Part shown: positions 1 through 51,957 of the stretch, piece by piece
How positions within the stretch are numbered: position 1 is the first letter of the stretch
Layout: every line of letters starts with the position of its first letter
Source of the DNA: Clostridia bacterium
Lineage (GTDB): Bacteria > Bacillota > Clostridia > Christensenellales > UBA1242
Reading direction: 5' to 3'
DNA: 64,000 nt
NCBI GenBank assembly: GCA_017453125.1
Contig: JAFTKS010000012.1
Span: 117,238-181,237 of the forward strand
Notes under the pieces: generated by a model
The model's database searches: none
Told to the model about the DNA's origin: nothing
What the model saw: the letters and a program-made list of their open reading frames with translations, nothing else
Made by a program: the position numbers and the translations under genes

Positions 1-1745
1 TCATTTTTAGCCTCAATTATAACTGGCTTTTTGCCTTTAAGATGCAAATCATAAGCAACTTCACAACCACTTAATCCTCCGCCTATTACAACTACATTAT
101 CACCAACAGTCTTTCCATTGAGATAATCAACAGTTTCAATTGCTCTTTCAATACCTGGCAAGCCAATCTTCTTTGCTTTTGAACCCGTAGCAACAACAAT
201 TTCATCTGCCTGAACTTGTTTCAAATCTGTAATTTCAGTATTAAATTTCACTTTTATTTTAAGTGCTTTTATCTGTCTTCTGAACCACTCTATTAGTTCT
301 TTATCTTTTTCTTTGAAATCTGGAGCAGCAGCTGAGATGAATATTCCTCCCAACTTGTCTGATTTCTCATAAATAGTTACATTGTGTCCTCTTAAGGTAA
401 GAATACGTGCTGTTTCCATTCCACCTATTCCACCACCGATTACAGCAATATTTTTCTTTTTCTTGGCTGGTTTATAATCATATTTTCCACCATCCATAGT
501 TTGTGGATTTAATGCACACCTAGCCATATGTGCTGTATCTCCTAGATGTCCAGCATTAGCAACACCTTTATAATGAGACATAACGAAACAAGCATTATGA
601 CAACAAATACACGGCATTATGTCTTCTTCCTTGCCTGCTTTCAATTTTGTTACCCAATGACTGTCAACCAAGAATTGTCTCGCAACACCCATTGCATCAA
701 TCTCTTTGTTTTTAATTGCATTTGAGGCAACAAGCGGAGTCATTTTTCCAGCACAAACTACAGGAATATCAACAAATTTTTTAATATGTGAACAATCCTC
801 AAGATTGCAATTCTGAGGCATATATACAGGAGGATGAGCCCAATACCAAGCATCATATGTTCCATTATCCGCATTAAGCATATCGTATCCAGCATCTTGC
901 AAATATTTAGCAGCCTTTTCACTTTCTGCCATATCCCTACCAACTTCCTTGTATTTCTCACCAGGAAGAGCACCTTGACAGAATCCTTTTGTTTTGCTTA
1001 CAACAGAGTACCTAACAGACACAGGATAATCATCACCACATTCAGCCTTGATAGCCTTTACAATTTCAACAGGAAATCTATATCTATTCTCAAAACTTCC
1101 ACCATAATTATCTTGTCTATGATTTGTATACTTAGTAGTAAATTGATCTAGCAAATATCCTTCGTGAACAGCGTGAACTTCTACACCATCTACGCCAGCT
1201 TCTTTGAGCATTTTTGACGTTCTTGCATAAGCATAGATAATGTCTTCAATTTCTTTTAATTTCATTTCTCTACACATTGCATTTTCTGCCCAACGTGAAG
1301 GAAGTTCACTTGGAGATGCTGTTAAATACGAAATATTAAAAATTGGTTTTAACAAGGCACCAAGAAACTTGTTTCTTAGCATAGGTACTAGTGCGTTTGG
1401 AATTGAAAAAGACCTTCCAAAACCAGCAGTTAATTGAACAAATAACTTTGCACCGGTTTTGTGAAATTCTTCCATGTATTTCTTTAATTTTTTAAACGCA
1501 CCTTTAGCCTTGTATAGCCATTGTCCACCTATTAAGTTTCTTAGAGGTGCTATACCAGGAATCACTAAACCAACATTGTTTTTTGCTAAATCCATAAAGA
1601 AATCAGCTGAATCCTTGTCAAAATGATGAGGCTCCATCCAACCAAATAATGATGTACCACCCATTGGACACAATACAATTCTATTTTTTATTTCAACATT
1701 ACCAATTTTCCAAGGTGTAAACAAAGGTTCATAATTTTTATTCAT
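1..1745 (-). CDS. Old Yellow Enzyme / 2-enoate (2,4-dienoyl-CoA) reductase family NADH:flavin oxidoreductase; C-terminus cut by the window edge
   Basis: Absent from the ORF track because it runs off the left edge. My translation from ATG 1745-1743 (AGGAGAG RBS just upstream) gives MNKNYEPLFTPWKIGNVEIKNRIVLCPMGG, HAVHEGYLLDQF, a Cys cluster PCICCHNAC...ARCALNP (4Fe-4S type) and IGGGIGGME (dinucleotide fold). Confidence 0.85.
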   Translation of the reverse strand, partial: MNKNYEPLFTPWKIGNVEIKNRIVLCPMGGTSLFGWMEPHHFDKDSADFFMDLAKNNVGLVIPGIAPLRNLIGGQWLYKAKGAFKKLKKYMEEFHKTGAKLFVQLTAGFGRSFSIPNALVPMLRNKFLGALLKPIFNISYLTASPSELPSRWAENAMCREMKLKEIEDIIYAYARTSKMLKEAGVDGVEVHAVHEGYLLDQFTTKYTNHRQDNYGGSFENRYRFPVEIVKAIKAECGDDYPVSVRYSVVSKTKGFCQGALPGEKYKEVGRDMAESEKAAKYLQDAGYDMLNADNGTYDAWYWAHPPVYMPQNCNLEDCSHIKKFVDIPVVCAGKMTPLVASNAIKNKEIDAMGVARQFLVDSHWVTKLKAGKEEDIMPCICCHNACFVMSHYKGVANAGHLGDTAHMARCALNPQTMDGGKYDYKPAKKKKNIAVIGGGIGGMETARILTLRGHNVTIYEKSDKLGGIFISAAAPDFKEKDKELIEWFRRQIKALKIKVKFNTEITDLKQVQADEIVVATGSKAKKIGLPGIERAIETVDYLNGKTVGDNVVVIGGGLSGCEVAYDLHLKGKKPVIIEAKN

Positions 1746-1940
1746 TTTTCTCTCCTATAAACAAAACGAGTTTGATAATTAAAAAATACAGACAATAAAA
1801 AGTAAGTTATTAATTGTATATTTATATTTTAATATTTTTTAAAAATTAAGTCAAACAAGAGATATTATATTAATTAAATACTCCCCTATATGTATGCAAT
1901 AAATAAATTTTATTATTTTTAATTTTTTTGTAAAAATTTA

Positions 1941-1969
1941 TTGACATATATCAATTTATTTGATAATAT
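1941..1969 (+). promoter_or_regulatory. sigma-A type promoter for the tRNA-Ala/tRNA-Ile pair
   Basis: TTGACA (1941-1946), 17-nt spacer, TAATAT (1964-1969); about 40 nt upstream of tRNA-Ala. Confidence 0.6.
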
Positions 1970-2011: not shown

Positions 2012-2088
2012 GGGGGTATAGCTCAGTTGGCTAGAGCACCTGCCTTGCAAGCAGGGGGTCAAGAGTTCAAGTCTCTTTATCTCCACCA
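2012..2088 (+). tRNA. tRNA-Ala (anticodon UGC), CCA encoded
   Basis: Hand-folded cloverleaf: GGGGGTA/TATCTCC acceptor with G3:U70, GCTC/GAGC D stem, CCTGC-CTTGCAA-GCAGG anticodon arm, AAGAG-TTCAAGT-CTCTT T arm, ACCA end; 77 nt. Confidence 0.95.
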
Positions 2089-2091
2089 CTT

Positions 2092-2168
2092 AGAGATGTA
2101 GCTCAGCAGGTTAGAGCACCACCCTGATAAGGTGGGGGTCGGTGGTTCGAGTCCACTCATCTCTACCA
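2092..2168 (+). tRNA. tRNA-Ile (anticodon GAU), CCA encoded
   Basis: AGAGATG/CATCTCT acceptor, GCTC/GAGC D stem, CCACC-CTGATAA-GGTGG anticodon arm, variable GGGTC, GGTGG-TTCGAGT-CCACT T arm, ACCA; 77 nt; starts 3 nt after tRNA-Ala. Confidence 0.93.
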
Positions 2169-2174
2169 TAAATT

Positions 2175-2199
2175 AACCAGTAATGATACTGGTTTTTTT
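2175..2199 (+). terminator. intrinsic terminator after tRNA-Ile
   Basis: AACCAGTA-ATGA-TACTGGTT stem-loop followed by a T run. Confidence 0.75.
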
Positions 2200-2381
2200 A
2201 TTTCCCCCACCTTAGCATTACACCTGTAATGCGTGTTGTTTACAACACATCAGGGTGCTCACCCTGCATCAACGATTGCAAAACTTGCTTTTGCATAAGT
2301 TGCGGGGTCGGTGTGTACTCGAGTCCTCGTCACTTCCGTGCCACTCGAGTGTAGCGAGTCCACTCATCTCTACCATAAATT

Positions 2382-2408
2382 AACCAGTAATTTATACTGG
2401 TTTTTTAT
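2382..2408 (+). terminator. second copy of the tRNA-Ile terminator inside repeat unit 2
   Basis: AACCAGTA-ATTTA-TACTGGTT plus T run. The stem is identical to 2175-2199; only the loop differs. Confidence 0.65.
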
Positions 2409-2608
2409 TTTCCCCACCTTAGCATTACACCTGTAATGCGTGTTGTTTACAACACATCAGGGTGCTCGCCCTGCATCACCGATTGCAAAACTTGCTTTTG
2501 CATAAGTGCGGGTTCGGTGTGTACTCGAGTCCTCGTCACTTCTGTGCCACTCGAGTGTTGCGAGTCCACTCATCTTTTTAATCTAATAATGCAAATTTGA
2601 TAAATAAA

Positions 2609-2641
2609 GAAAAAAGACATATCAAAGCAATATGTCTTTTT
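2609..2641. terminator. bidirectional intrinsic terminator (gltX on the minus strand, tRNA/repeat region on the plus strand)
   Basis: AGACATAT-CAAAGCA-ATATGTCT stem flanked by an A run (5') and a T run (3'). Confidence 0.75.
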
Positions 2642-2664: not shown

Positions 2665-4329
2665 CTATTTGAGTTTTTTCTTCAAAACGTCCAATCTATT
2701 AAACAATTCATCTTTTCCAAGTACACAGCAAATAGAATATAAATCTGGTGTATTTGTTTTGCCTGTGAATGCATATCTAACCAAATTACAGAACGCTGAC
2801 AAATTGCCATTGTATGCTTCAGGGTTAGCCTTATATGCTTTATTATCAGAACAGAATCCGTGTTTATCAGCCATCTTTTTCATTCTGTCAAACCATTCTT
2901 CTTTTGTCAACGTTTCTTCAAATAACACAATATAAGTATGCAATATTTTGTATATTAATTCATTGTCAATATTGATCAATTCTTTGAAATTAATATTAAG
3001 TTTTGAGAAGTCTTCAAACATATAATTATAATATTCTCTTACCATTGACCATTTGTAGATATCCTTTCTAGGTTTTTCTCCACCTCTTTCAATATCAAAA
3101 ACATTCATAGAATATTCTGGGTTCTTGGATAATAGTTCTGCAAATTCAGTGTCATATTCTTTTGCCCAAGCAAGTAACTGTTGATACACTTCTTTTGATG
3201 AAAGTCTAGATATATAATCTTTTGAAACATCATTAACTTTTACAATATCAAATACAGGATTTCCTGTATTAATTTTTTCTACAGCAAAAGGAAATTCTTT
3301 GTAATATTTATTAGGATTTTCTCTACGCCAATCTTCAAAGTCACTATTAAGAAGATTGAGCAAGTATTCTTTGACTGCAACAACTGGGTATCCATCTTGA
3401 ATATAGAATCTACAATCAGCCTCTGGGTCTTTTCTTTTGCTTAGTTTACGTTTTTTACCCTCTTCTGTTTTGCATATATTTGGAGTATGCAAATAAGGAA
3501 TCTCATCAAAGCCAAATGCCCTAAACAATTCAATATGACTCGCAACTGATTGGAACCAATCTTCTCCCCTAACTATAACAGTTGTTCCCATAAGTGTATC
3601 ATCAACAACGTGAGCAAATGCATATACAGGAATGCCATTATTTTTGATAAGGACTATATCTTTACCATTTTCACGAATTTTTCTCTTACCTTTAATCAAG
3701 TCGTCAAATTCCATTATTGCATTTGGATTACCCTTTGATAAAAGCCTCAATGCAAAAGGTTTTCCCATTGCAAGATTCTCTTCTATCTCCTCCAATGAGA
3801 TTTTTCTACAAGGGTCGTGATCAATTGTTGTATTATTGTTTTCTATCTCTTGTTCTCTTTTTGCAACTATATCTTCTTTGTCTTCGCATTTTTCACAGAA
3901 ACAAGGAAAAGCTCTGCCTTTTGCAACTAAATATTTGGCAAATGTTTGATAAATCTCAAGGCGTTCGCTTTGAACGTATGGACCATATATTCCCTTATCA
4001 TCGCGATTCCCTCTATACCCCTCATTTGGAACTATATCAAACTTCAAAATAGTATCGTACAATAAGTCTCCAGCATTCTCAATTTCACGTTTTTGATCGG
4101 TATCTTCCAATCTTAAATAAAAGACACTAGTTGGTTTTTTGCTAAGCATTTCGTGAGTAACACACTGAAAAAGACCTCCAATATGCAAATATCCTGTCGG
4201 ACTAGGTGCAAATCTTGTAACAACCGCATCTTTTAACAAATTTCTGCTAGGATATTTTTGGAAATATTTATTAATATTTTTATCTACATTCGGATATAGC
4301 ATCTCTGCCAGTTTATTATAGTCTAACAT
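2665..4329 (-). CDS. gltX: glutamate--tRNA ligase (long 554-aa form)
   Basis: Class I HIGH motif in RFAPSPTGYLHIGGL, KMSKS-type motif KLSKRK, and a FAHVVDD...VIVRGEDW core. Confidence 0.88.
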   Translation of the reverse strand: MLDYNKLAEMLYPNVDKNINKYFQKYPSRNLLKDAVVTRFAPSPTGYLHIGGLFQCVTHEMLSKKPTSVFYLRLEDTDQKREIENAGDLLYDTILKFDIVPNEGYRGNRDDKGIYGPYVQSERLEIYQTFAKYLVAKGRAFPCFCEKCEDKEDIVAKREQEIENNNTTIDHDPCRKISLEEIEENLAMGKPFALRLLSKGNPNAIMEFDDLIKGKRKIRENGKDIVLIKNNGIPVYAFAHVVDDTLMGTTVIVRGEDWFQSVASHIELFRAFGFDEIPYLHTPNICKTEEGKKRKLSKRKDPEADCRFYIQDGYPVVAVKEYLLNLLNSDFEDWRRENPNKYYKEFPFAVEKINTGNPVFDIVKVNDVSKDYISRLSSKEVYQQLLAWAKEYDTEFAELLSKNPEYSMNVFDIERGGEKPRKDIYKWSMVREYYNYMFEDFSKLNINFKELINIDNELIYKILHTYIVLFEETLTKEEWFDRMKKMADKHGFCSDNKAYKANPEAYNGNLSAFCNLVRYAFTGKTNTPDLYSICCVLGKDELFNRLDVLKKKLK

Positions 4330-4343
4330 TTTCTCTTCCTCTT

Positions 4344-5429
4344 TTAAATAACAACCTTATTTAATTTTTCCACATACGGCTCAAAAGTATCACTAATAAA
4401 GTTTTCTATAATTTTTATTGTTGCTTTTGTAGATGGATTCACAGTATTCAAATAACTTTCGTAATCAATACCATTCATTTGATCAAACTTATATTGGCTT
4501 ATAGTGTATATATCAAGAGCATTATAATTATACAAATAAGTATTTAATTTCTGCTCAAAAACACTTCTATCATAACACAATTCATTTAATGTCTCTTTGA
4601 CCTGTTGACCTAATTCTGAGGGATCAGAAAGATTATTCATTATAGTCTCCGAAACTTCTAGTCTTTCATCTAATAGGTCTAATAGATTAAAATCATTCTC
4701 CGAACCTACAACAACAGCCATATCACATACGCCATTTCTTCCAACTTGATAATTAAGAGCTTTGATATTTTCAAGATATACAATTCTAGAAACATCAATG
4801 TATGCTTTATCAACATAGATTTTGATATTTTCAGCAGTATGAATATCATAATTCTCTATAGCATATTTCAAATTCAAAGCGTGAAAATAATTAATAAAAT
4901 CAAATGATGCATCTATTACTTTGTTTAATTCAAACGAATATGAAGTAATAGTATATTCCATAATATTCGAAGCACCATTTTTCAAATCCACTCTAAAATC
5001 CTGATACTCATCTTTAAAATAGTCCAATGAGTTTTTAAGTGCTTTGACTTTATTATACAAAGAATTAGCCTCGTCTTTATCCATTGAACTGGCTTTTGTA
5101 TAAAACTTCTCATAGTTATTTTCATAATATTTGAAAATATTAGTAAGAATTTTCTGTTGGTAATCTAGAGCTTTGTATCGTTTTTCCAAATCGTTATTCT
5201 GATATTCATTTTCTGTAATAAGATATCTTGCATCATCAGGATAATATATTTTTATTGAGTTTGGCGACGAGGCATCTGCAAAAAATAGATTTTGTGCACC
5301 ACTTTTATACTCTGTTACCATAGTTTCATATAGGTTTTTCACATCTGTCAAATTTTTATCTTTACCACAACCAAATAATACAGCCACAGCCATCAATGGT
5401 AAAATTATTAAACTTAATAATCTTTTCAT
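4344..5429 (-). CDS. lipoprotein of unknown function
   Basis: Signal peptide with lipobox MKRLLSLIILPLMAVAVLFGC-GKD; RBS AGAGGGG; paralogous to the upstream gene. Confidence 0.7.
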   Translation of the reverse strand: MKRLLSLIILPLMAVAVLFGCGKDKNLTDVKNLYETMVTEYKSGAQNLFFADASSPNSIKIYYPDDARYLITENEYQNNDLEKRYKALDYQQKILTNIFKYYENNYEKFYTKASSMDKDEANSLYNKVKALKNSLDYFKDEYQDFRVDLKNGASNIMEYTITSYSFELNKVIDASFDFINYFHALNLKYAIENYDIHTAENIKIYVDKAYIDVSRIVYLENIKALNYQVGRNGVCDMAVVVGSENDFNLLDLLDERLEVSETIMNNLSDPSELGQQVKETLNELCYDRSVFEQKLNTYLYNYNALDIYTISQYKFDQMNGIDYESYLNTVNPSTKATIKIIENFISDTFEPYVEKLNKVVI

Positions 5430-5441
5430 AATACCCCTCTT

Positions 5442-6440
5442 TTAAAATCCTAAGACATTCAAAATATTGACAACTGCTTGTTTTGCTTTTTCATACACGG
5501 AATTGAGACCTCCGCCATCTGCCATATTATTCTTCTCTTGATTTTTGCTTGAGAATACATAATTCAATGTATCTTTGTAATTATTGTATAGTAGATTATA
5601 ACTACTCAAGAAATCATATTCAGAATATTCTGAAGTAAAAACATCAACATCATTTTGAACTTCACTAATTTTCTTTTCTACCATATACAAATCATTTGCA
5701 AAATCTGGTGCCTGGGTATCTGTTACTGATGATGATTTCAAAAGACTTCTTGCAAAAGCATCGCTCAATGCCATATTCAAATCTACTATGATATTATTAG
5801 AATAAATACTAACATCAATATAATCAAGCATACTTAAAACTAACGATGCACCTTTATTTAATGAAGTTCTATAGTCGGCATACAAAGAATTATATCTAGC
5901 AAGCAACATATCCATTTGAATTTCTTCGCCTTCTATATAATTCTGATACTTCATCAGTTCATCGATACGACTTTGTAAAGTTTCTAGACTTGAGTTGTAA
6001 TCTTTAATATTTCGTTTCAAAGCCTTCAATGTTTTACTATTAGCAAAATCTCCCTTGGTGTATGGCAAATAATACTCAATGATATCATCTAAATAACTAT
6101 CAGTCACAATATATGAATTATAAGTATAAACAACTACTCCACCCTCTCTTTCTCCAACAATTGGAGTGTCGCTTATAAGGTTGGCTCTTACCTCATGAAT
6201 TTTCTTCTCTGTATCTGTATCATTGCCAATTACTTTTTCTTCATTGCCATTGACATAATTCATACTTCTAAGATCTAACATTTTTTCACGAATACCAAGA
6301 GACTCTTTGTAATCAACCATTTCAGATAGATTATTATATGCCTGAACCTCATCTTTCTCTTTGAAGCAAAATGCCCAAACACAAAAACCTGTTACAAGTA
6401 CTACAGATAAAGCAACAATTATTTTAATCCAGAACTTCAC
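5442..6440 (-). CDS. N-terminally membrane-anchored protein of unknown function (paralog of 4344-5429)
   Basis: N-terminal TM helix IIVALSVVLVTGFCVWAFCF. Shares SLY..Y...LNKGAS.....L.Y with the lipoprotein (LKNGASNIMEYTI vs LNKGASLVLSMLDYI). Confidence 0.65.
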   Translation of the reverse strand: MKFWIKIIVALSVVLVTGFCVWAFCFKEKDEVQAYNNLSEMVDYKESLGIREKMLDLRSMNYVNGNEEKVIGNDTDTEKKIHEVRANLISDTPIVGEREGGVVVYTYNSYIVTDSYLDDIIEYYLPYTKGDFANSKTLKALKRNIKDYNSSLETLQSRIDELMKYQNYIEGEEIQMDMLLARYNSLYADYRTSLNKGASLVLSMLDYIDVSIYSNNIIVDLNMALSDAFARSLLKSSSVTDTQAPDFANDLYMVEKKISEVQNDVDVFTSEYSEYDFLSSYNLLYNNYKDTLNYVFSSKNQEKNNMADGGGLNSVYEKAKQAVVNILNVLGF

Positions 6441-7452: not shown

Positions 7453-10400
7453 GTGAAAAAAATAACTATTGACGGAAATACCGCCGCTGCCACCATTGCT
7501 TATCAAATGAGTGAAATTGCAGCAATTTATCCAATTACCCCTAGTAGCACTATGGCTGAACTATGTGATAGTTGGGCAAGCGAAAACAAAACAAATATTT
7601 TTGGAAACAAAGTAAAGGTTATCGAAATGCAGTCCGAAGGTGGTGCAAGTGGAACTCTTCACGGAAGTTTATGCTCTGGAGCACTTACAACTACATTCAC
7701 AGCTAGCCAAGGACTCCTTCTTATGATTCCTAATATGTACAAGATTGCCGGAGAACTTACTCCTTGCGTTATGCACGTGAGTGCGAGAGCACTTGCAACC
7801 CATGCTCTTTCTATATTTGGCGACCACTCAGACGTTATGAGTGTTAGACAAACTGGTTGGGCTATGCTTTGTTCTTCTAGTGTTCAAGAAGCAATGGATA
7901 TGGCACTTGTTGCTCACCTAGCAACGCTATCTTCAAGTGTTCCTTTTGTTCATTTCTTCGACGGATTTAGAACAAGTCACGAAATCAATACTATTGAAGA
8001 AATAGATATCGAAACAATTAAACACTTAGTTCCTTATGATAAAATAAGAGAATTCAAAGCTCGTGCACTTAACTCAAATAACCCACATCAACAAGGAACT
8101 GCTCAAAATCCAGACATTTATTTCCAAAATAGAGAAACTGCAAATGGTTACTACGATAAAACTCCAGCAATAGTTCAAGATTATATGAATAAGGTTGGAC
8201 AGATCACTGGTAGAAAATATAATATTTTTGATTATTATGGTGACCCTAATGCAGAAAACGTTATAGTTCTTATGGGAAGTGGCGCAACAACTGCTGAAGA
8301 AACTGTAAACTATTTAAATAAGAACTTCAATGCTAAAGTTGGTGTTGTAGTAGTTAGATTATACAGACCATTTGCTAGTAAAGCATTTGCTGAAGTTCTT
8401 CCAAAAACGGTTAAAAACATTGCAGTTCTTGATAGAACCAAAGAACCAGGAAGTGATGGAGAACCTTTATACAAAGATGTTGTTTGTGCTCTTGCTGAAA
8501 ACAATTTAGGAAATATCAGCGTTTATGGCGGAAGATACGGACTTGGAAGCAAAGAGTTTACACCAACTATGGTTAATGCTGTATTTGAAAACCTTCAATC
8601 AAATACTCCAAAAAACCACTTCACTGTTGGTATTGAAGACGACCTTACTCACACAAGTTTAAAAATAACAAAAAATATTTTCCCTAGTGACGAATCTGTG
8701 ACCGCCTGCAAATTCTATGGTTTCGGCGGAGACGGAACAGTTAGTGCCAATAAGAGTAGCATCAAAATTATTGGAAACAACACCGACCTTAATGGTCAAG
8801 CATACTTTGAATATGACAGCAAAAAGAGCGGAAGCGCAACAATTAGCCACTTGAGATTTGGAAAAAATAAAATTAACGAAAGCTATCTACTTGATAATAT
8901 CGATTTTGTTGCTGTTCATAAAGAGACATATGTAACAAAATATAACCTTCTTAATTTTGTAAAAGATAACGGAACACTTCTTTTGAATACAGGCTGGAAT
9001 CTTGAAGATTTGGAAACAATGCTACCAAATAGACTTAAGAAAGAAATCGCTAGCAAACATATCAAATTCTATACAATTGATGCCGATAAAATCGCTGGCG
9101 AAATTGGTCTTGGCAACAAAATAAACCTTGTAATGCAATCTGCATTCTTCAAATTAATTAACATAATTCCAATTGACACAGCCGTATCAGAAATGAAAAA
9201 ATACGCAGAAAAAAGCTATGGTAGCAAAGGTCAAGCAATTCTTGATATGAACTTCAAAGCAATCGATAGCGGTGTTAATAATATTACAGAGGTACACTAC
9301 CCTGAGTCCTGGAAAGACCTTGTAATTAATGACGAAAACACAATTGTTGGAGAACAAGAGTACTTTGAAAAAATTGTTAAACCTATAACAATGTTAGAGG
9401 GCAACAATCTTCCTGTAAGTGCATTTGACCCAAGAGGAATTGTTCCAACAAATACTGCAAAACTAGAAAAGCGTGGTGTTGCAACAGAACTTCCTTGCTG
9501 GAATAGCGAAAAATGTATTCAATGTAATATGTGTGCGTTTGTTTGTCCTCACGCAGCAATTAGACCTGTTCTTGTAAAAGAAGAAAATTTAAAAGACGCA
9601 CCAAAAACACTTCAAACCCCTAATGCAACAGGAGAACAAAACCTCAAATTTATTATGCAGGTAAGTAGCAAAGATTGTACAGGTTGTGGTGTTTGTGCAA
9701 GTGTTTGCCCAGCTAAAGAAAAAGCAATTACTATGGTTGAAGCACAAAACTTAATGGAACAAGAACATACTCATTATGAGTATTTAAACTCTATTCCACA
9801 CGAAAAAAGTGCTATATTCAAGCCTTCAACTGTAAAAGGTAGTCAGTACAATATGCCATACTTTGAATTCAGTGGTGCTTGTGCTGGTTGTGGAGAAACC
9901 CCTTACCTAAAAGTTATAAGCCAATTATTCGGTGATAAAATGATTATTGCCAATGCTACTGGTTGTTCTAGTATCTATGGAGGATCTTCCCCTACTTGCC
10001 CTTATGTAAAAGATGACAAAGGTCACGGAATTGCTTGGGCAAATAGCCTATTTGAAGACAATGCCGAATTTGGATACGGAATTAGAATGGGTCATAAAGT
10101 TCAACAAGAAGTACTAAGACAGAACTTAAATAAAATTTATGACAAAGAATATAATGAAGAATTAAACAATGCAATTGAAGAATACTTGTCTTGCGATAAT
10201 GTAACTAGACAAAGAGAACTTGCAGAAACCATTACAAGCAATTTGAATTCGATAAATGTTGAAGAAGATATGAAATTAATTAAAGAGGCAATTATCGCTA
10301 GCAAAGACAACTTCTCAAATCAATCTGTTTGGATTGTTGGTGGAGATGGCTGGGCTTATGATATTGGATATGGCGGACTTGATCACGTTCTTGCAAGTGG

Positions 10401-51795: not shown

Positions 51796-51957
51796 AATAT
51801 TGTCCTCCATTAGTTATTTGAAAACAAAACACCTTATGCCCTAATAGTAGCATAAGGTGACCAAATTCATAATCAACTAATTCACTACCTCGGCAAGTGC
51901 TTTCGCGTTATGACAAATGTCTCTTGCTGTCTTAGGTGCATCAATATTCTATTTTCG
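51796..51957 (-). promoter_or_regulatory. L10 (rplJ) leader with intrinsic attenuator
   Basis: Leader between the consensus promoter and rplJ. Minus strand has ...CCUAAGACAGCAAGAG...CGCGAAAGCACUUGCCGAGGUAG... and a CACCTTATGC/GCATAAGGTG hairpin (51830-51859) followed by TTTTGTTTT. Resembles the Firmicute L10 leader as I remember it. Confidence 0.6.

Follow-up and report, generated by a model that had tools for sequence, protein, structure and literature searches.

A putative structured RNA element built from tRNA-Ile sequence directly downstream of the tRNA-Ile gene in uncultured Clostridia

Introduction

What is the GC-rich tandem repeat that begins within the tRNA-Ile(GAU) gene of this clostridial contig and continues behind it? 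A preliminary description of the 64,000-nucleotide stretch of DNA analysed here (the window) set two readings side by side: stacked scars of integration at a tRNA attachment site, or a family of structured small RNAs derived from the tRNA. The second is supported by homologues at the same site, compensatory changes in their helices and an excess of G·U over A·C pairs. The first did not hold as the main explanation. From comparative sequence analysis, we consider it probable that both units represent one conserved structured non-coding RNA element, specific to certain lineages, assembled from tRNA-Ile sequence and present here in tandem.

Results

The repeat and its surroundings

TRF finds a tandem repeat at 2148–2575 with a period of 207 bp, 2.1 copies, 95% matches and a score of 782, in agreement with the two tandem units of about 207 bp derived from tRNA-Ile that had been described. 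The repeat starts inside the tRNA gene, and each unit holds a terminator copy, visible as terminator-like hairpins with T runs at 2175–2194 and 2382–2402. The 21-nt tRNA end (2148–2168) is found again at 2355–2375 and, truncated, in a third copy ending at 2575; CGAGTCCACTCATCT has three exact occurrences in 64 kb (2148, 2355 and 2561), and three or more matches were seen in no shuffle. Seven substitutions and three indel columns separate unit 1 from unit 2, close to the ten or so differences noted before, and A2261 against G2468 converts a U-A pair into U·G in the CAGGGTG/CACCCTG stem, again as described. The hairpin coordinates given earlier were all reproduced, and a recount of 2204–2375 gave 88 G+C in 172 (51.2%, previously about 51%) against 32.4% for the window. 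Single-unit folds beat shuffles with z = −4.3 and −4.4 on the plus strand and −3.9 on the minus strand.

The flanking genes are as previously identified: gltX (GltX, 2665–4329, minus strand) and an Oxidored_FMN/Pyr_redox_2 protein, the OYE reductase. The earlier remark that no integrase lies nearby extends to integrases and transposases within about 17 kb. The entire 918-bp intergenic region recurs with 0 mismatches in two other metagenome assemblies (loci L001 and L002). The tRNA operon promoter (Table 1) is the sole strong promoter upstream of the units and has equivalents in L024 and L012. At the far end, the hairpin between the array and gltX is likely to be a bidirectional terminator, judging from its sequence.

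Table 1. Features of the tRNA operon and of the array that follows it.
Feature	Position	Strand	Basis and sequence
Promoter, tRNA-Ala/tRNA-Ile operon	1941..1969	+	TTGACA-17-TAATAT, TG upstream
tRNA-Ala(TGC)	2012..2088	+	ARAGORN, Rfam
tRNA-Ile(GAT)	2092..2168	+	ARAGORN, Rfam; last 21 nt (2148-2168) are the first repeat-boundary copy
T1, intrinsic terminator of the tRNA operon, opens unit 1	2175..2203	+	AACCAGTA/TACTGGTT stem and T run
A1, 5′ strand of P1	2204..2214	+	CCCCCACCTTA, reverse complement of tRNA-Ile TAAGGTGGGGG (positions 36-46)
Hairpin H1	2215..2232	+	fold; 6/7 pairs covary across lineages
Hairpin H2	2233..2248	+	fold; 6/7 pairs covary across lineages
A2 and P3	2249..2266	+	invariant ATCAGGGTG paired with sense copy CACCCTG
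Mini-hairpin H3′	2268..2276	+	ATC-AAC-GAT, read by eye
Hairpin H4	2278..2294	+	fold, covariation alignment
S2, 3′ strand of P1	2295..2313	+	sense copy of tRNA positions 35-52 (ATAAGTTGCGGGGTCGGTG)
Ta, two-tier hairpin at T-loop position	2317..2350	+	5′ strand T-loop-derived; covariation
tRNA-Ile 3′ end (last 21 nt, T loop to CCA), exact copy	2355..2375	+	closes unit 1, opens unit 2
T2, terminator copy	2382..2408	+	sequence; hairpin 2382-2402
Unit 2 core (A1, H1, H2, A2/P3, H3′, H4, S2)	2408..2519	+	covariance model 2408-2517, 95.4 bits
Ta hairpin of unit 2	2523..2556	+	fold, coordinates
Third, truncated tRNA 3′-end copy, end of array	2561..2575	+	CGAGTCCACTCATCT, then TTTTTAAT
Hairpin flanked by A and T runs, separating the array from the 3′ end of convergent gltX	2610..2641	.	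sequence

Sense and antisense tRNA segments form a six-helix junction

A1 and A2 are reverse complements of the anticodon arm that pair with sense copies, closing a six-helix junction (P1, H1, H2, P3, H3′ and H4). P1 and P3 thus consist of sense copies of the anticodon-arm/variable region of the tRNA paired with antisense copies. A1 pairs with 2296–2307 in the predicted fold; in the P3 arm, A2 is the antisense of tRNA positions 28–36, anticodon included, and CACCCTG the sense of 28–34. The junction is followed by the two-tier Ta hairpin, then by a single-stranded tail identical to the last 21 nt of the local tRNA including CCA, and finally by an intrinsic terminator. The units have neither a 5′ acceptor strand nor a D arm, with interruptions in both the anticodon loop and the T loop.

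This anatomy revises the preliminary description, of which the hairpin coordinates, the Ta stem and the missing 5′ acceptor and D arm stand, with the antisense segments overlooked. The 5′ CCACC, read there as a sense piece of the tRNA, fits better as part of the antisense copy A1. The third hairpin, taken for a mere insertion, is itself tRNA-derived, and the palindromic antisense-sense build had also been missed.

Parts of the fold vary among relatives. H3′ has counterparts, also read by eye, of the form ATT..AAT, ATAC..GTAT or longer. The T-stem closing the Ta insertion is not kept in L017 (GCTTT vs CCATT), and Tb is a weak hairpin in some lineages, with two competing pairings. In L024 the tRNA 3′ end is rebuilt as a duplex, TGGTAGAGATGAGTG pairing with CACTCATCTCTACCA. 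Iterated sense and antisense tRNA fragments also make up the M0 module (L024 and L008) and Ta, and several terminators are built from tRNA fragments: T1 of L012 (ACCCTGAT/ATCAGGGT), T1 of L028 and the terminator of L031.

No ORF in the units is conserved across lineages. A 41-aa Cys-rich ORF (2229–2354) was rejected: its ATG lies within the H1 stem and is missing in L012, L005, L017 and L024, and reading frames differ between the two units.

Homologues occupy the same site in related lineages

A homologous element was found directly 3′ of the same tRNA-Ile gene in at least ten diverged lineages of an uncultured Clostridia clade, those reached through gltX having GltX identities of 71–84%; all loci are metagenome assemblies. 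Homologues co-oriented with tRNA-Ile(GAT) occur in L005/6, L008, L009/10/11/16, L012, L013, L017, L021, L024/25 and L028, and L026/27 carry a decaying copy. In an outgroup at 56% GltX identity the tRNA pair is present and the element absent. Each genome has one element locus, and no mobile copies turned up in any search. A copy that has lost its tRNA neighbour is 5′-truncated and has a mutated A2. Loci hold one, two or about 2.6 copies, numbers that are not fully secure because contigs L003, L004, L010/L016, L021, L025 and L030 break in or beside the repeats. Unit identity is 82–95% within a locus and 43–79% between loci. The window, L009, L012, L024 and L028 all repeat the 21 nt from C56 to A76, and L017 repeats 19 of the 21. 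Repeats of this kind, sharply bounded and reaching from the T loop to CCA, drive local tandem duplication.

The surroundings of the element are not constant. Gene content around tRNA-Ile differs from lineage to lineage, the downstream neighbours of the element differ in every lineage with no co-oriented downstream gene conserved, and the position is convergent and intergenic in most. PHROG has no counterpart for the small ORFs that follow the element in L017. When GTDB genomes and JGI metagenomes were scanned with three-anchor patterns, genuine matches were few (L012, L013, L015/L016 and L017), the exact anchors probably under-sampling the family; matches in L014 and L018 were discarded as chance hits inside coding DNA.

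Helices covary and one strand is favoured

RNAalifold recovers P1, H1, H2, P3 and H4. In a model-based alignment, 95.2% of cells are paired and 15 of 29 pairs have changed on both sides (41 cells), a covariation reached by 0 of 500 shuffles, with slid controls pairing only 23–54%; these controls ignore kinship and cover only about 13 sequences. The Ta hairpin behaves similarly (94.9% of cells paired, 4 of 9 pairs covarying, 0 of 500 shuffles). The homologues keep every helix through compensatory changes. L013 shows covariation in cis in distal P1 too, between CATACCCC and GGGGTATG. Moreover, the unpaired junction nucleotides are invariant across the alignment. Compensatory helix changes beyond shuffled and slid controls, kinship ignored, are the generic mark of a conserved structured RNA, and the element carries it. 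The short perfect hairpins could nevertheless be kept in part by quasi-palindrome template-switch mutation and not by selection.

On the plus strand, nine G·U pairs were counted against two A·C, the latter in a degenerate terminal unit; the excess is modest, amounting to roughly seven independent events against two. The asymmetry points to a single functional strand, predicted to be that of the tRNA. An intrinsic terminator of the plus strand stands after the tRNA and after every full unit.

Proposed transcription and duplication of the units

Transcription of the plus strand would start at the strong promoter of the tRNA operon and read through its weak, AT-rich terminator. No promoter was found between T1 and the units; transcription of the units would therefore depend on read-through, and their RNA may be released during tRNA processing. 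Indirect pointers to such transcription are the orientation of the units, their terminators, the G·U bias and the strong tRNA promoter ahead of them. The duplication itself probably arose by recent local unequal recombination between direct repeats of about 55 nt, comprising the tRNA 3′ end and the terminator, and appears to have occurred independently in two other lineages.

If the RNA is real, it represents a structured family absent from Rfam with an unusual origin in sense and antisense pieces of the adjacent tRNA gene, and with a 3′ tail that remains the same as the 3′ end of that tRNA although the tRNA differs from lineage to lineage. Local duplication and fold-back would then have turned a tRNA gene into a new structured RNA, a concrete example of such an origin, and the element would be a testable candidate for base-pairing recognition of one specific tRNA.

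Alternative explanations for the array

The array might instead be functionless palindromic DNA with a stack of terminators, produced by fold-back or template-switch errors beside a highly transcribed tRNA operon that runs head-on to most genes. Copies of the tRNA in both orientations would have been perfected into hairpins by quasi-palindrome correction, and would serve at most as extra terminators or 3′-end stabilisers shielding the convergent gltX. Such a history would suit an element made wholly of iterated sense and antisense tRNA fragments, its convergent intergenic location in most lineages, the opposition of the tRNA operon to most genes (from GC skew and gene orientation) and the variable tandem copy number. 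We nevertheless judge it unlikely, because the same multi-helix architecture and helix lengths persist from 84% down to 71% GltX identity, a distance at which neutral sequence would have lost the architecture through indels. The invariant unpaired junction nucleotides also argue against it, as does the G·U over A·C asymmetry, which suggests one functional strand; this strand, inferred from GC skew, is the leading-strand template and not the lagging-strand template exposed as ssDNA. H1, H2 and H4 have no T runs, so they are not terminators.

Integration by a T-loop-crossing tyrosine integrase, which would have inserted tRNA 3′ ends together with terminators, could have left stacked attachment scars or a miniature non-autonomous (CIME-like) element, with units that are remnants but could still be mobilised in trans. 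For tRNA-targeting integrases an identity block from the T loop to CCA is expected (PMC4383910), and the block here has exactly this extent. In L012 and L017 the 3′-end copies have unrelated terminators, as if from two molecules; the variable gene content around the tRNA resembles a recombination hot spot; and L006 and L017 each have a chimeric tRNA-Ile gene that combines 5′ AGAGATG and 3′ CATTCCT, possibly through misassembly, since the lineages share about 60 identical nt of tRNA core. The neighbouring genes, however, are housekeeping genes, with no phage gene any more than an integrase or transposase within about 17 kb. No match came from phages, plasmids or 2.9 million viral contigs: a blastn search with both units found nothing in 50,697 phage and 72,556 plasmid records, and scanning the viral contigs for exact strings or patterns yielded at most chance matches in coding DNA (L019 and L020).

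Other observations bear on the same point. Each genome has a single locus, and no empty site was seen among the examined lineages with readable DNA 3′ of tRNA-Ile. The element has diverged to the same order as host gltX, which fits vertical descent, and the right-hand copy in L017 carries the 'donor' acceptor variant and not a displaced host one. Finally, integration leaves the covariation in six or more helices unexplained. Attachment scars are thus also improbable as the source of the array. As in tRNA attachment sites and genomic islands, there is a direct repeat running exactly from the T loop to CCA, whose copy restores the gene and brings a terminator, together with tandem arrays and variable flanking gene content. 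The units differ in being gene-free and only about 200–391 bp long, in the lack of an integrase, empty attB, free attP or mobile copy, and in a covarying multi-helix interior with antisense tRNA pieces. If the element is a real RNA, it also cautions programs that find genomic islands against reading every repeated tRNA 3′ fragment after a tRNA gene as an integration scar.

Least credible, at very low probability, is a folded-ssDNA recombination site like integron attC or CTX-phage attP(+), in which annealed copies would mimic the duplex tRNA gene for a host or helper recombinase that swaps strands with the real gene, yielding tandem arrays and turnover of flanking genes: the fold does rebuild a duplex version of the anticodon-arm region and, in L024, of the tRNA 3′ end, structure is more conserved than sequence, and arrays and neighbours vary, but no associated recombinase or mobile copy was found, attC-type R/L boxes are not conserved, the terminal inverted repeat is confined to the L024/L026 type, and inheritance of the element appears vertical, at a single locus.

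Comparison with known RNA families

The structured RNA favoured here corresponds to no family in Rfam 15: the units stay below every gathering threshold, and the matches in the window are the two tRNAs. A minus-strand match to HPnc0260 (51 bits in the window and 62 in L008, threshold 59) covers the tRNA 3′ half and AT-rich flank and was judged to be driven by tRNA sequence; a sub-threshold YrlA match likewise comes from tRNA sequence. ARAGORN found no tRNA or tmRNA within the units, and neither it nor the Rfam tRNA model found a tRNA or tRNA pseudogene in 2169–2600; for tmRNA, two-piece forms included, neither ARAGORN nor Rfam gave a match. A T-box was dismissed, with no match even at E-values up to 10 and with terminators and convergent or unrelated genes following the element, and a riboswitch in general for want of a conserved co-oriented downstream gene. 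Hammerhead-type or other ribozymes would require conserved unpaired core nucleotides between the arms, which are not there, and have no Rfam match. The alignment has no conserved GTTRRRY/RYYYAAC boxes and no recombinase gene lies nearby, which counts against an integron attC; IS110/IS1111 bridge or seek RNAs were set aside, there being no transposase in any locus and the guide-like segments being cis-paired and not in internal loops. We found no description of such an element in the literature.

Partial likenesses exist. Small RNAs are known from the spacers and trailers of tRNA operons, for instance 3′ETS-leuZ of E. coli. Like these, the units are co-oriented trailer sequence at the 3′ side of a tRNA operon, have no promoter of their own and are predicted to be released by processing; unlike these, they lie beyond an intrinsic terminator, are far larger and more structured, are made of tRNA sequence and have no evident mRNA or sRNA target. 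With tmRNA, YrlA/Y RNA, viral tRNA-like structures, T-box leaders and external guide sequences (EGS) of RNase P they share tRNA-derived sequence ending in ACCA and complementarity to the anticodon (AUC-A) and the 5′ acceptor strand, and the tail has the format of a bacterial EGS, 12 nt plus ACCA. They lack, however, the acceptor stem, D arm and intact T loop, do not lie upstream of a co-oriented gene and match none of the tRNA, tmRNA, YrlA and T-box models of Rfam.

Bipartite guides (H/ACA pockets, trans-hammerheads and the loops of IS110 bridge RNA) resemble the units in having two antisense arms that flank hairpins and jointly cover a contiguous target of 17–20 nt, here the anticodon arm; they differ from the units, which have no box motifs, catalytic-core nucleotides or recombinase/RNP gene and mask their arms in cis with sense copies. 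There is also a likeness to orphan GC-rich structured RNA candidates found by comparative genomics in AT-rich intergenic regions (PMC2864571, PMC8040213). The element is similarly a GC-rich island in AT-rich DNA, shows covariation and belongs to a narrow clade of uncultured gut-type Clostridia; its palindromic build from the neighbouring tRNA and its tandem duplication are unusual, and it has no match in Rfam 15.

A possible interaction with tRNA-Ile

We tentatively suggest, from complementarity, that the unit RNA may be a binder directed at tRNA-Ile that serves as a sponge, as a sensor or to guide processing. The arms next to the junction, CCCACCUU and AUCAGGGUG, are invariant and would act through complementarity to the whole anticodon stem-loop, and the tRNA-identical 3′ tail through complementarity to the 5′ acceptor strand; arms and tail could together engage tRNA-Ile, its precursor or its halves, with the internal sense strands as a mask in cis. 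In a more specific and more doubtful version, arms split by H1/H2, the EGS-format tail and a cis lid might capture unfolded pre-tRNA-Ile or anticodon-cleaved halves, and such capture could make the RNA a sponge, a repair splint or a natural RNase P guide. An RNA of this sort would define a previously unseen class, derived from the tRNA gene itself and devoted to the regulation or quality control of one tRNA.

In every intact unit, 9–10 of the 10 nucleotides of ATCAGGGTG are identical to the tRNA antisense, with a degenerate partner in cis. Structured RNAs commonly have invariant pairs close to a junction, and such pairs do not by themselves point to trans-pairing. Cofolding predicts a unit–tRNA heterodimer 28–32 kcal/mol more stable than the separate folds, an energy that overstates the chance of binding because mature tRNA is tightly folded and modified. 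The anticodon arm of tRNA-Ile is identical in all lineages and therefore yields no covariation signal for trans-pairing. The match to the tRNA is dispensable in distal P1, as seen in L013, and no partner protein or regulated gene is evident. In most lineages nothing serves as a 5′ acceptor partner, so the tail is not a true tRNA-like domain. Over its 21 nt it follows the local acceptor variant, CATCTCT, CATTCCT or CATTCCA, and does so even where both flanking terminators are unrelated (L012 and L017).

A repeated, hairpin-rich element follows tRNA-Ile

Tandem Repeats Finder returned one array that starts within tRNA-Ile and extends 3' of it, comprising units 1 and 2, the tandem copies of a hairpin-rich element. 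The 15-mer CGAGTCCACTCATCT has only three sites in the 64 kb (2148, 2355 and 2561), a number reached in 0 shuffles. Our recounts agree with the preliminary description of the units: 88 of 172 nucleotides of the unit block are G+C, compared with 32.4% for the window; the hairpins lie where it had placed them; terminator copies are found at 2175 and 2382; A2261 differs from G2468 in the second unit; and the roughly ten differences claimed between units comprise 7 substitutions and 3 indels. The units fold far more stably than shuffled sequences (z ~ -4.3). The 918-bp intergenic region is identical in two other assemblies, and in other contigs the assembly breaks inside unit 2.

Features of the window and of related loci (GltX, identity of the neighbouring gene product to that of the window lineage)
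Feature	Sequence	Position	Strand	Description
Tandem array	window	2148-2575		period 207, 2.1 copies, 95% matches, score 782
tRNA-Ala(TGC)	window	2012-2088		ARAGORN, Rfam
tRNA-Ile(GAT)	window	2092-2168		ARAGORN, Rfam
361-aa protein	window	4344-5429	-	between truA and gltX
332-aa protein	window	5442-6440	-	between truA and gltX
Ribosomal protein L10 leader	window	51817-51954	-	RF00557, 67 bits; ordinary feature
Terminator	L031 (outgroup)	9514-9560		stem ATGAGTG/CACTCAT, from tRNA 3' end
Terminator T1	L012	5603-5626		stem ACCCTGAT/ATCAGGGT, from anticodon arm
Terminator T1	L028	7485-7510		GACC-ATAA-GGTC
Element homolog	L005/L006			GltX 84%; single unit without 3' domain
Element homolog	L008			GltX 81%; single unit
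Element homolog	L021			GltX 79%; cut by contig end
Element homolog	L009/L010/L011/L016			GltX 76%; 2 units and truncated third, period 218
Element homolog	L013			GltX 72%; core only
Element homolog	L024/L025			GltX 72%; 2 long units, period 391
Element homolog	L028			GltX 71%; single unit between copies of 57-bp direct repeat
Element homolog	L012, L017			from pattern scan; single unit each, each with its own different terminator
Element homolog	L026/L027			GltX 71%; 5'-truncated, ATCAGGTTG mutated, no tRNA adjoining

Relatives of this genome, an uncultured Clostridia MAG, were reached through GltX homologs and by scanning GTDB genomes and metagenomes for sequence patterns. With the exception of L026/L027, the homologs lie directly 3' of the same tRNA-Ala/tRNA-Ile pair. 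The element is absent from the outgroup (GltX 56%), although the tRNA pair is present there. A covariance model trained on 12 cores hits each unit once and has no further match in the window. Unit identity is 82-95% within a locus versus 43-79% between loci. The window, L009 and L024 have thus each duplicated the unit locally and independently, the plausible cause being unequal recombination between the repeats that comprise tRNA 3' end and terminator. In L029, an 82% relative, the 835 bp of contig beyond gltX hold no tRNA pair, and a (GCAA)n tetranucleotide repeat occupies the contig end (7470-7500).

The fold is conserved by covariation

RNAalifold recovered core helices P1, H1, H2, P3 and H4. 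In the model-based alignment, 95.2% of cells are paired and both sides have changed in 15 of 29 pairs (41 cells), values reached in 0 of 500 shuffles; sliding the partners as a control lowers pairing to 23-54%. Stems H1 and H2 stay paired although their sequences are unrelated between lineages, the mini-hairpin H3' covaries (ATC/GAT, ATT/AAT, ATAC/GTAT), and the H4 extension does likewise. The 3' domain contains Ta, a two-tier hairpin with outer stems CTCGAG/CTCGAG, TTCGGG/CCCGAA, CTCGGG/CCCGAG and CTCGC/GCGAG; its inner hairpin covaries and its internal loop is constant. In Ta, 94.9% of cells are paired and 4 of 9 pairs covary, values matched in 0 of 500 shuffles. The domain has a second, weaker hairpin, Tb. 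Read on the tRNA strand, G.U outnumbers A.C by 9 to 2. No ORF is conserved across the homologs.

Sense and antisense tRNA pieces build the junction

Besides sense tRNA pieces, the element holds antisense ones, which the preliminary anatomy had overlooked. Two stretches of the tRNA recur as reverse complements: TAAGGTGGGGG as CCCCCACCTTA, a match extended to 20 nt in L005 (AACCACCGACCCCCACCTTA), and CCACCCTGAT, anticodon included, as ATCAGGGTG(G). Sense copies, CACCCTG(Y)AT and ATAAGGTGGGGGTCGGTG, serve as their pairing partners, and a six-helix junction results whose hairpins are inserted at the anticodon-loop position on both strands. L024, L026 and L008 carry M0, an additional upstream antisense-hairpin-sense module; the L024 element starts with TGGTAGAGATGAGTG, antisense of the tRNA 3' end. 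ATCAGGGTG is invariant across all intact units, its cis partner degenerate. In L013, distal P1 covaries away from the tRNA sequence, which indicates that P1 is a real cis helix and that sequence is constrained only in the junction-proximal arms. The 21-nt tail equals the local tRNA 3' end in every case (CATCTCT, CATTCCT or CATTCCA), even between unrelated flanking terminators.

A probably selected structure, most likely RNA

The earlier structured-RNA reading is supported: the data fit a structure on the tRNA strand that is passed on vertically and kept by selection, most likely in the form of RNA. Fold-back DNA evolving neutrally, perhaps serving as a terminator, would suit the iterated sense/antisense make-up but is at odds with the strand bias, the long-term retention of architecture and the invariance of unpaired junction bases. 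The other early reading, stacked attachment-site scars (att scar/CIME), accounts for the variable neighbourhood and for the sharp T-loop-to-CCA identity block, as tRNA-targeting integration would leave (PMC4383910). It is largely not supported, however: covariation stays unexplained, no integrase was found in the neighbourhood, the units match no phage, plasmid or virus, and the loci examined include no empty site. That the element is a recombination site working as folded single-stranded DNA, in the manner of attC or CTX attP, is a remote possibility; neither a recombinase nor a mobile copy was found.

We class the element as a candidate orphan structured RNA, located in the trailer of a tRNA operon and unusual in its origin from the tRNA itself. 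No Rfam family matches it, the identities tRNA, tmRNA, T-box and YrlA were rejected, and a literature search found no description. Its complementarity to tRNA-Ile is suggestive of a possible function; cofolding, which ignores tRNA tertiary structure and modifications, favours a heterodimer by 28-32 kcal/mol.

Transcription and terminators

The tRNA operon's own promoter is the only strong one. None was found ahead of the units, so their transcription would need read-through of T1, the terminator right after tRNA-Ile (in the window an AT-rich 8-bp stem). Each full unit is followed by a same-strand terminator. In L031, L012 and L028, the terminator right after tRNA-Ile is built from tRNA-like sequence; for the L031 trailer two alternative pairings are conceivable, one with the 3' strand of the tRNA and one with that of the terminator itself. 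The direct-repeat motif AAAATTGTGAACGAATTGTGAA(CGAAAC) follows terminators behind tRNA 3'-end copies (L012 5644-5665 and 5926-5953; L017 443-470), flanks the element on both sides in L012 and does not occur in the window; it may serve to bind a protein or belong to an older, longer repeat unit. Downstream of the L008 element, a long AT-rich non-coding stretch (7990-8350) without Rfam match has two sequences that resemble promoters; behind each comes a short structured segment with a T run at its end, a possible small RNA.

Genomic setting

The tRNA-Ile genes of L006 (5586-5662) and L017 (63-139) have mismatched acceptor stems (5' AGAGATG, 3' CATTCCT), giving A3xC70 and G4.U69; L005 and L006 do not differ in GltX, yet the L005 stem is matched (AGGAATG/CATTCCT). 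The mismatch reflects either inter-lineage recombination within the tRNA gene or a chimeric assembly joined across the ~60 nt of conserved tRNA core, and these chimeric genes may be assembly artefacts. GC skew on the + strand stays negative over the whole 6-kb profile, and the - strand carries most of the window's long ORFs (1-64000); the tRNA operon, with its strong promoter, is thus probably head-on to replication, an unusual orientation for tRNA genes in Firmicutes. The 361- and 332-aa proteins have no significant Pfam match and keep their position in all relatives examined. An OYE/Pyr_redox reductase gene (window 1-1746) adjoins the tRNA promoter in the window's lineage, with a 119-aa HTH gene beyond it (L001 10717-11076); in L009 such an HTH gene (9043-9402) takes the reductase's place. 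Both flanks of the tRNA pair have thus seen turnover of gene content.
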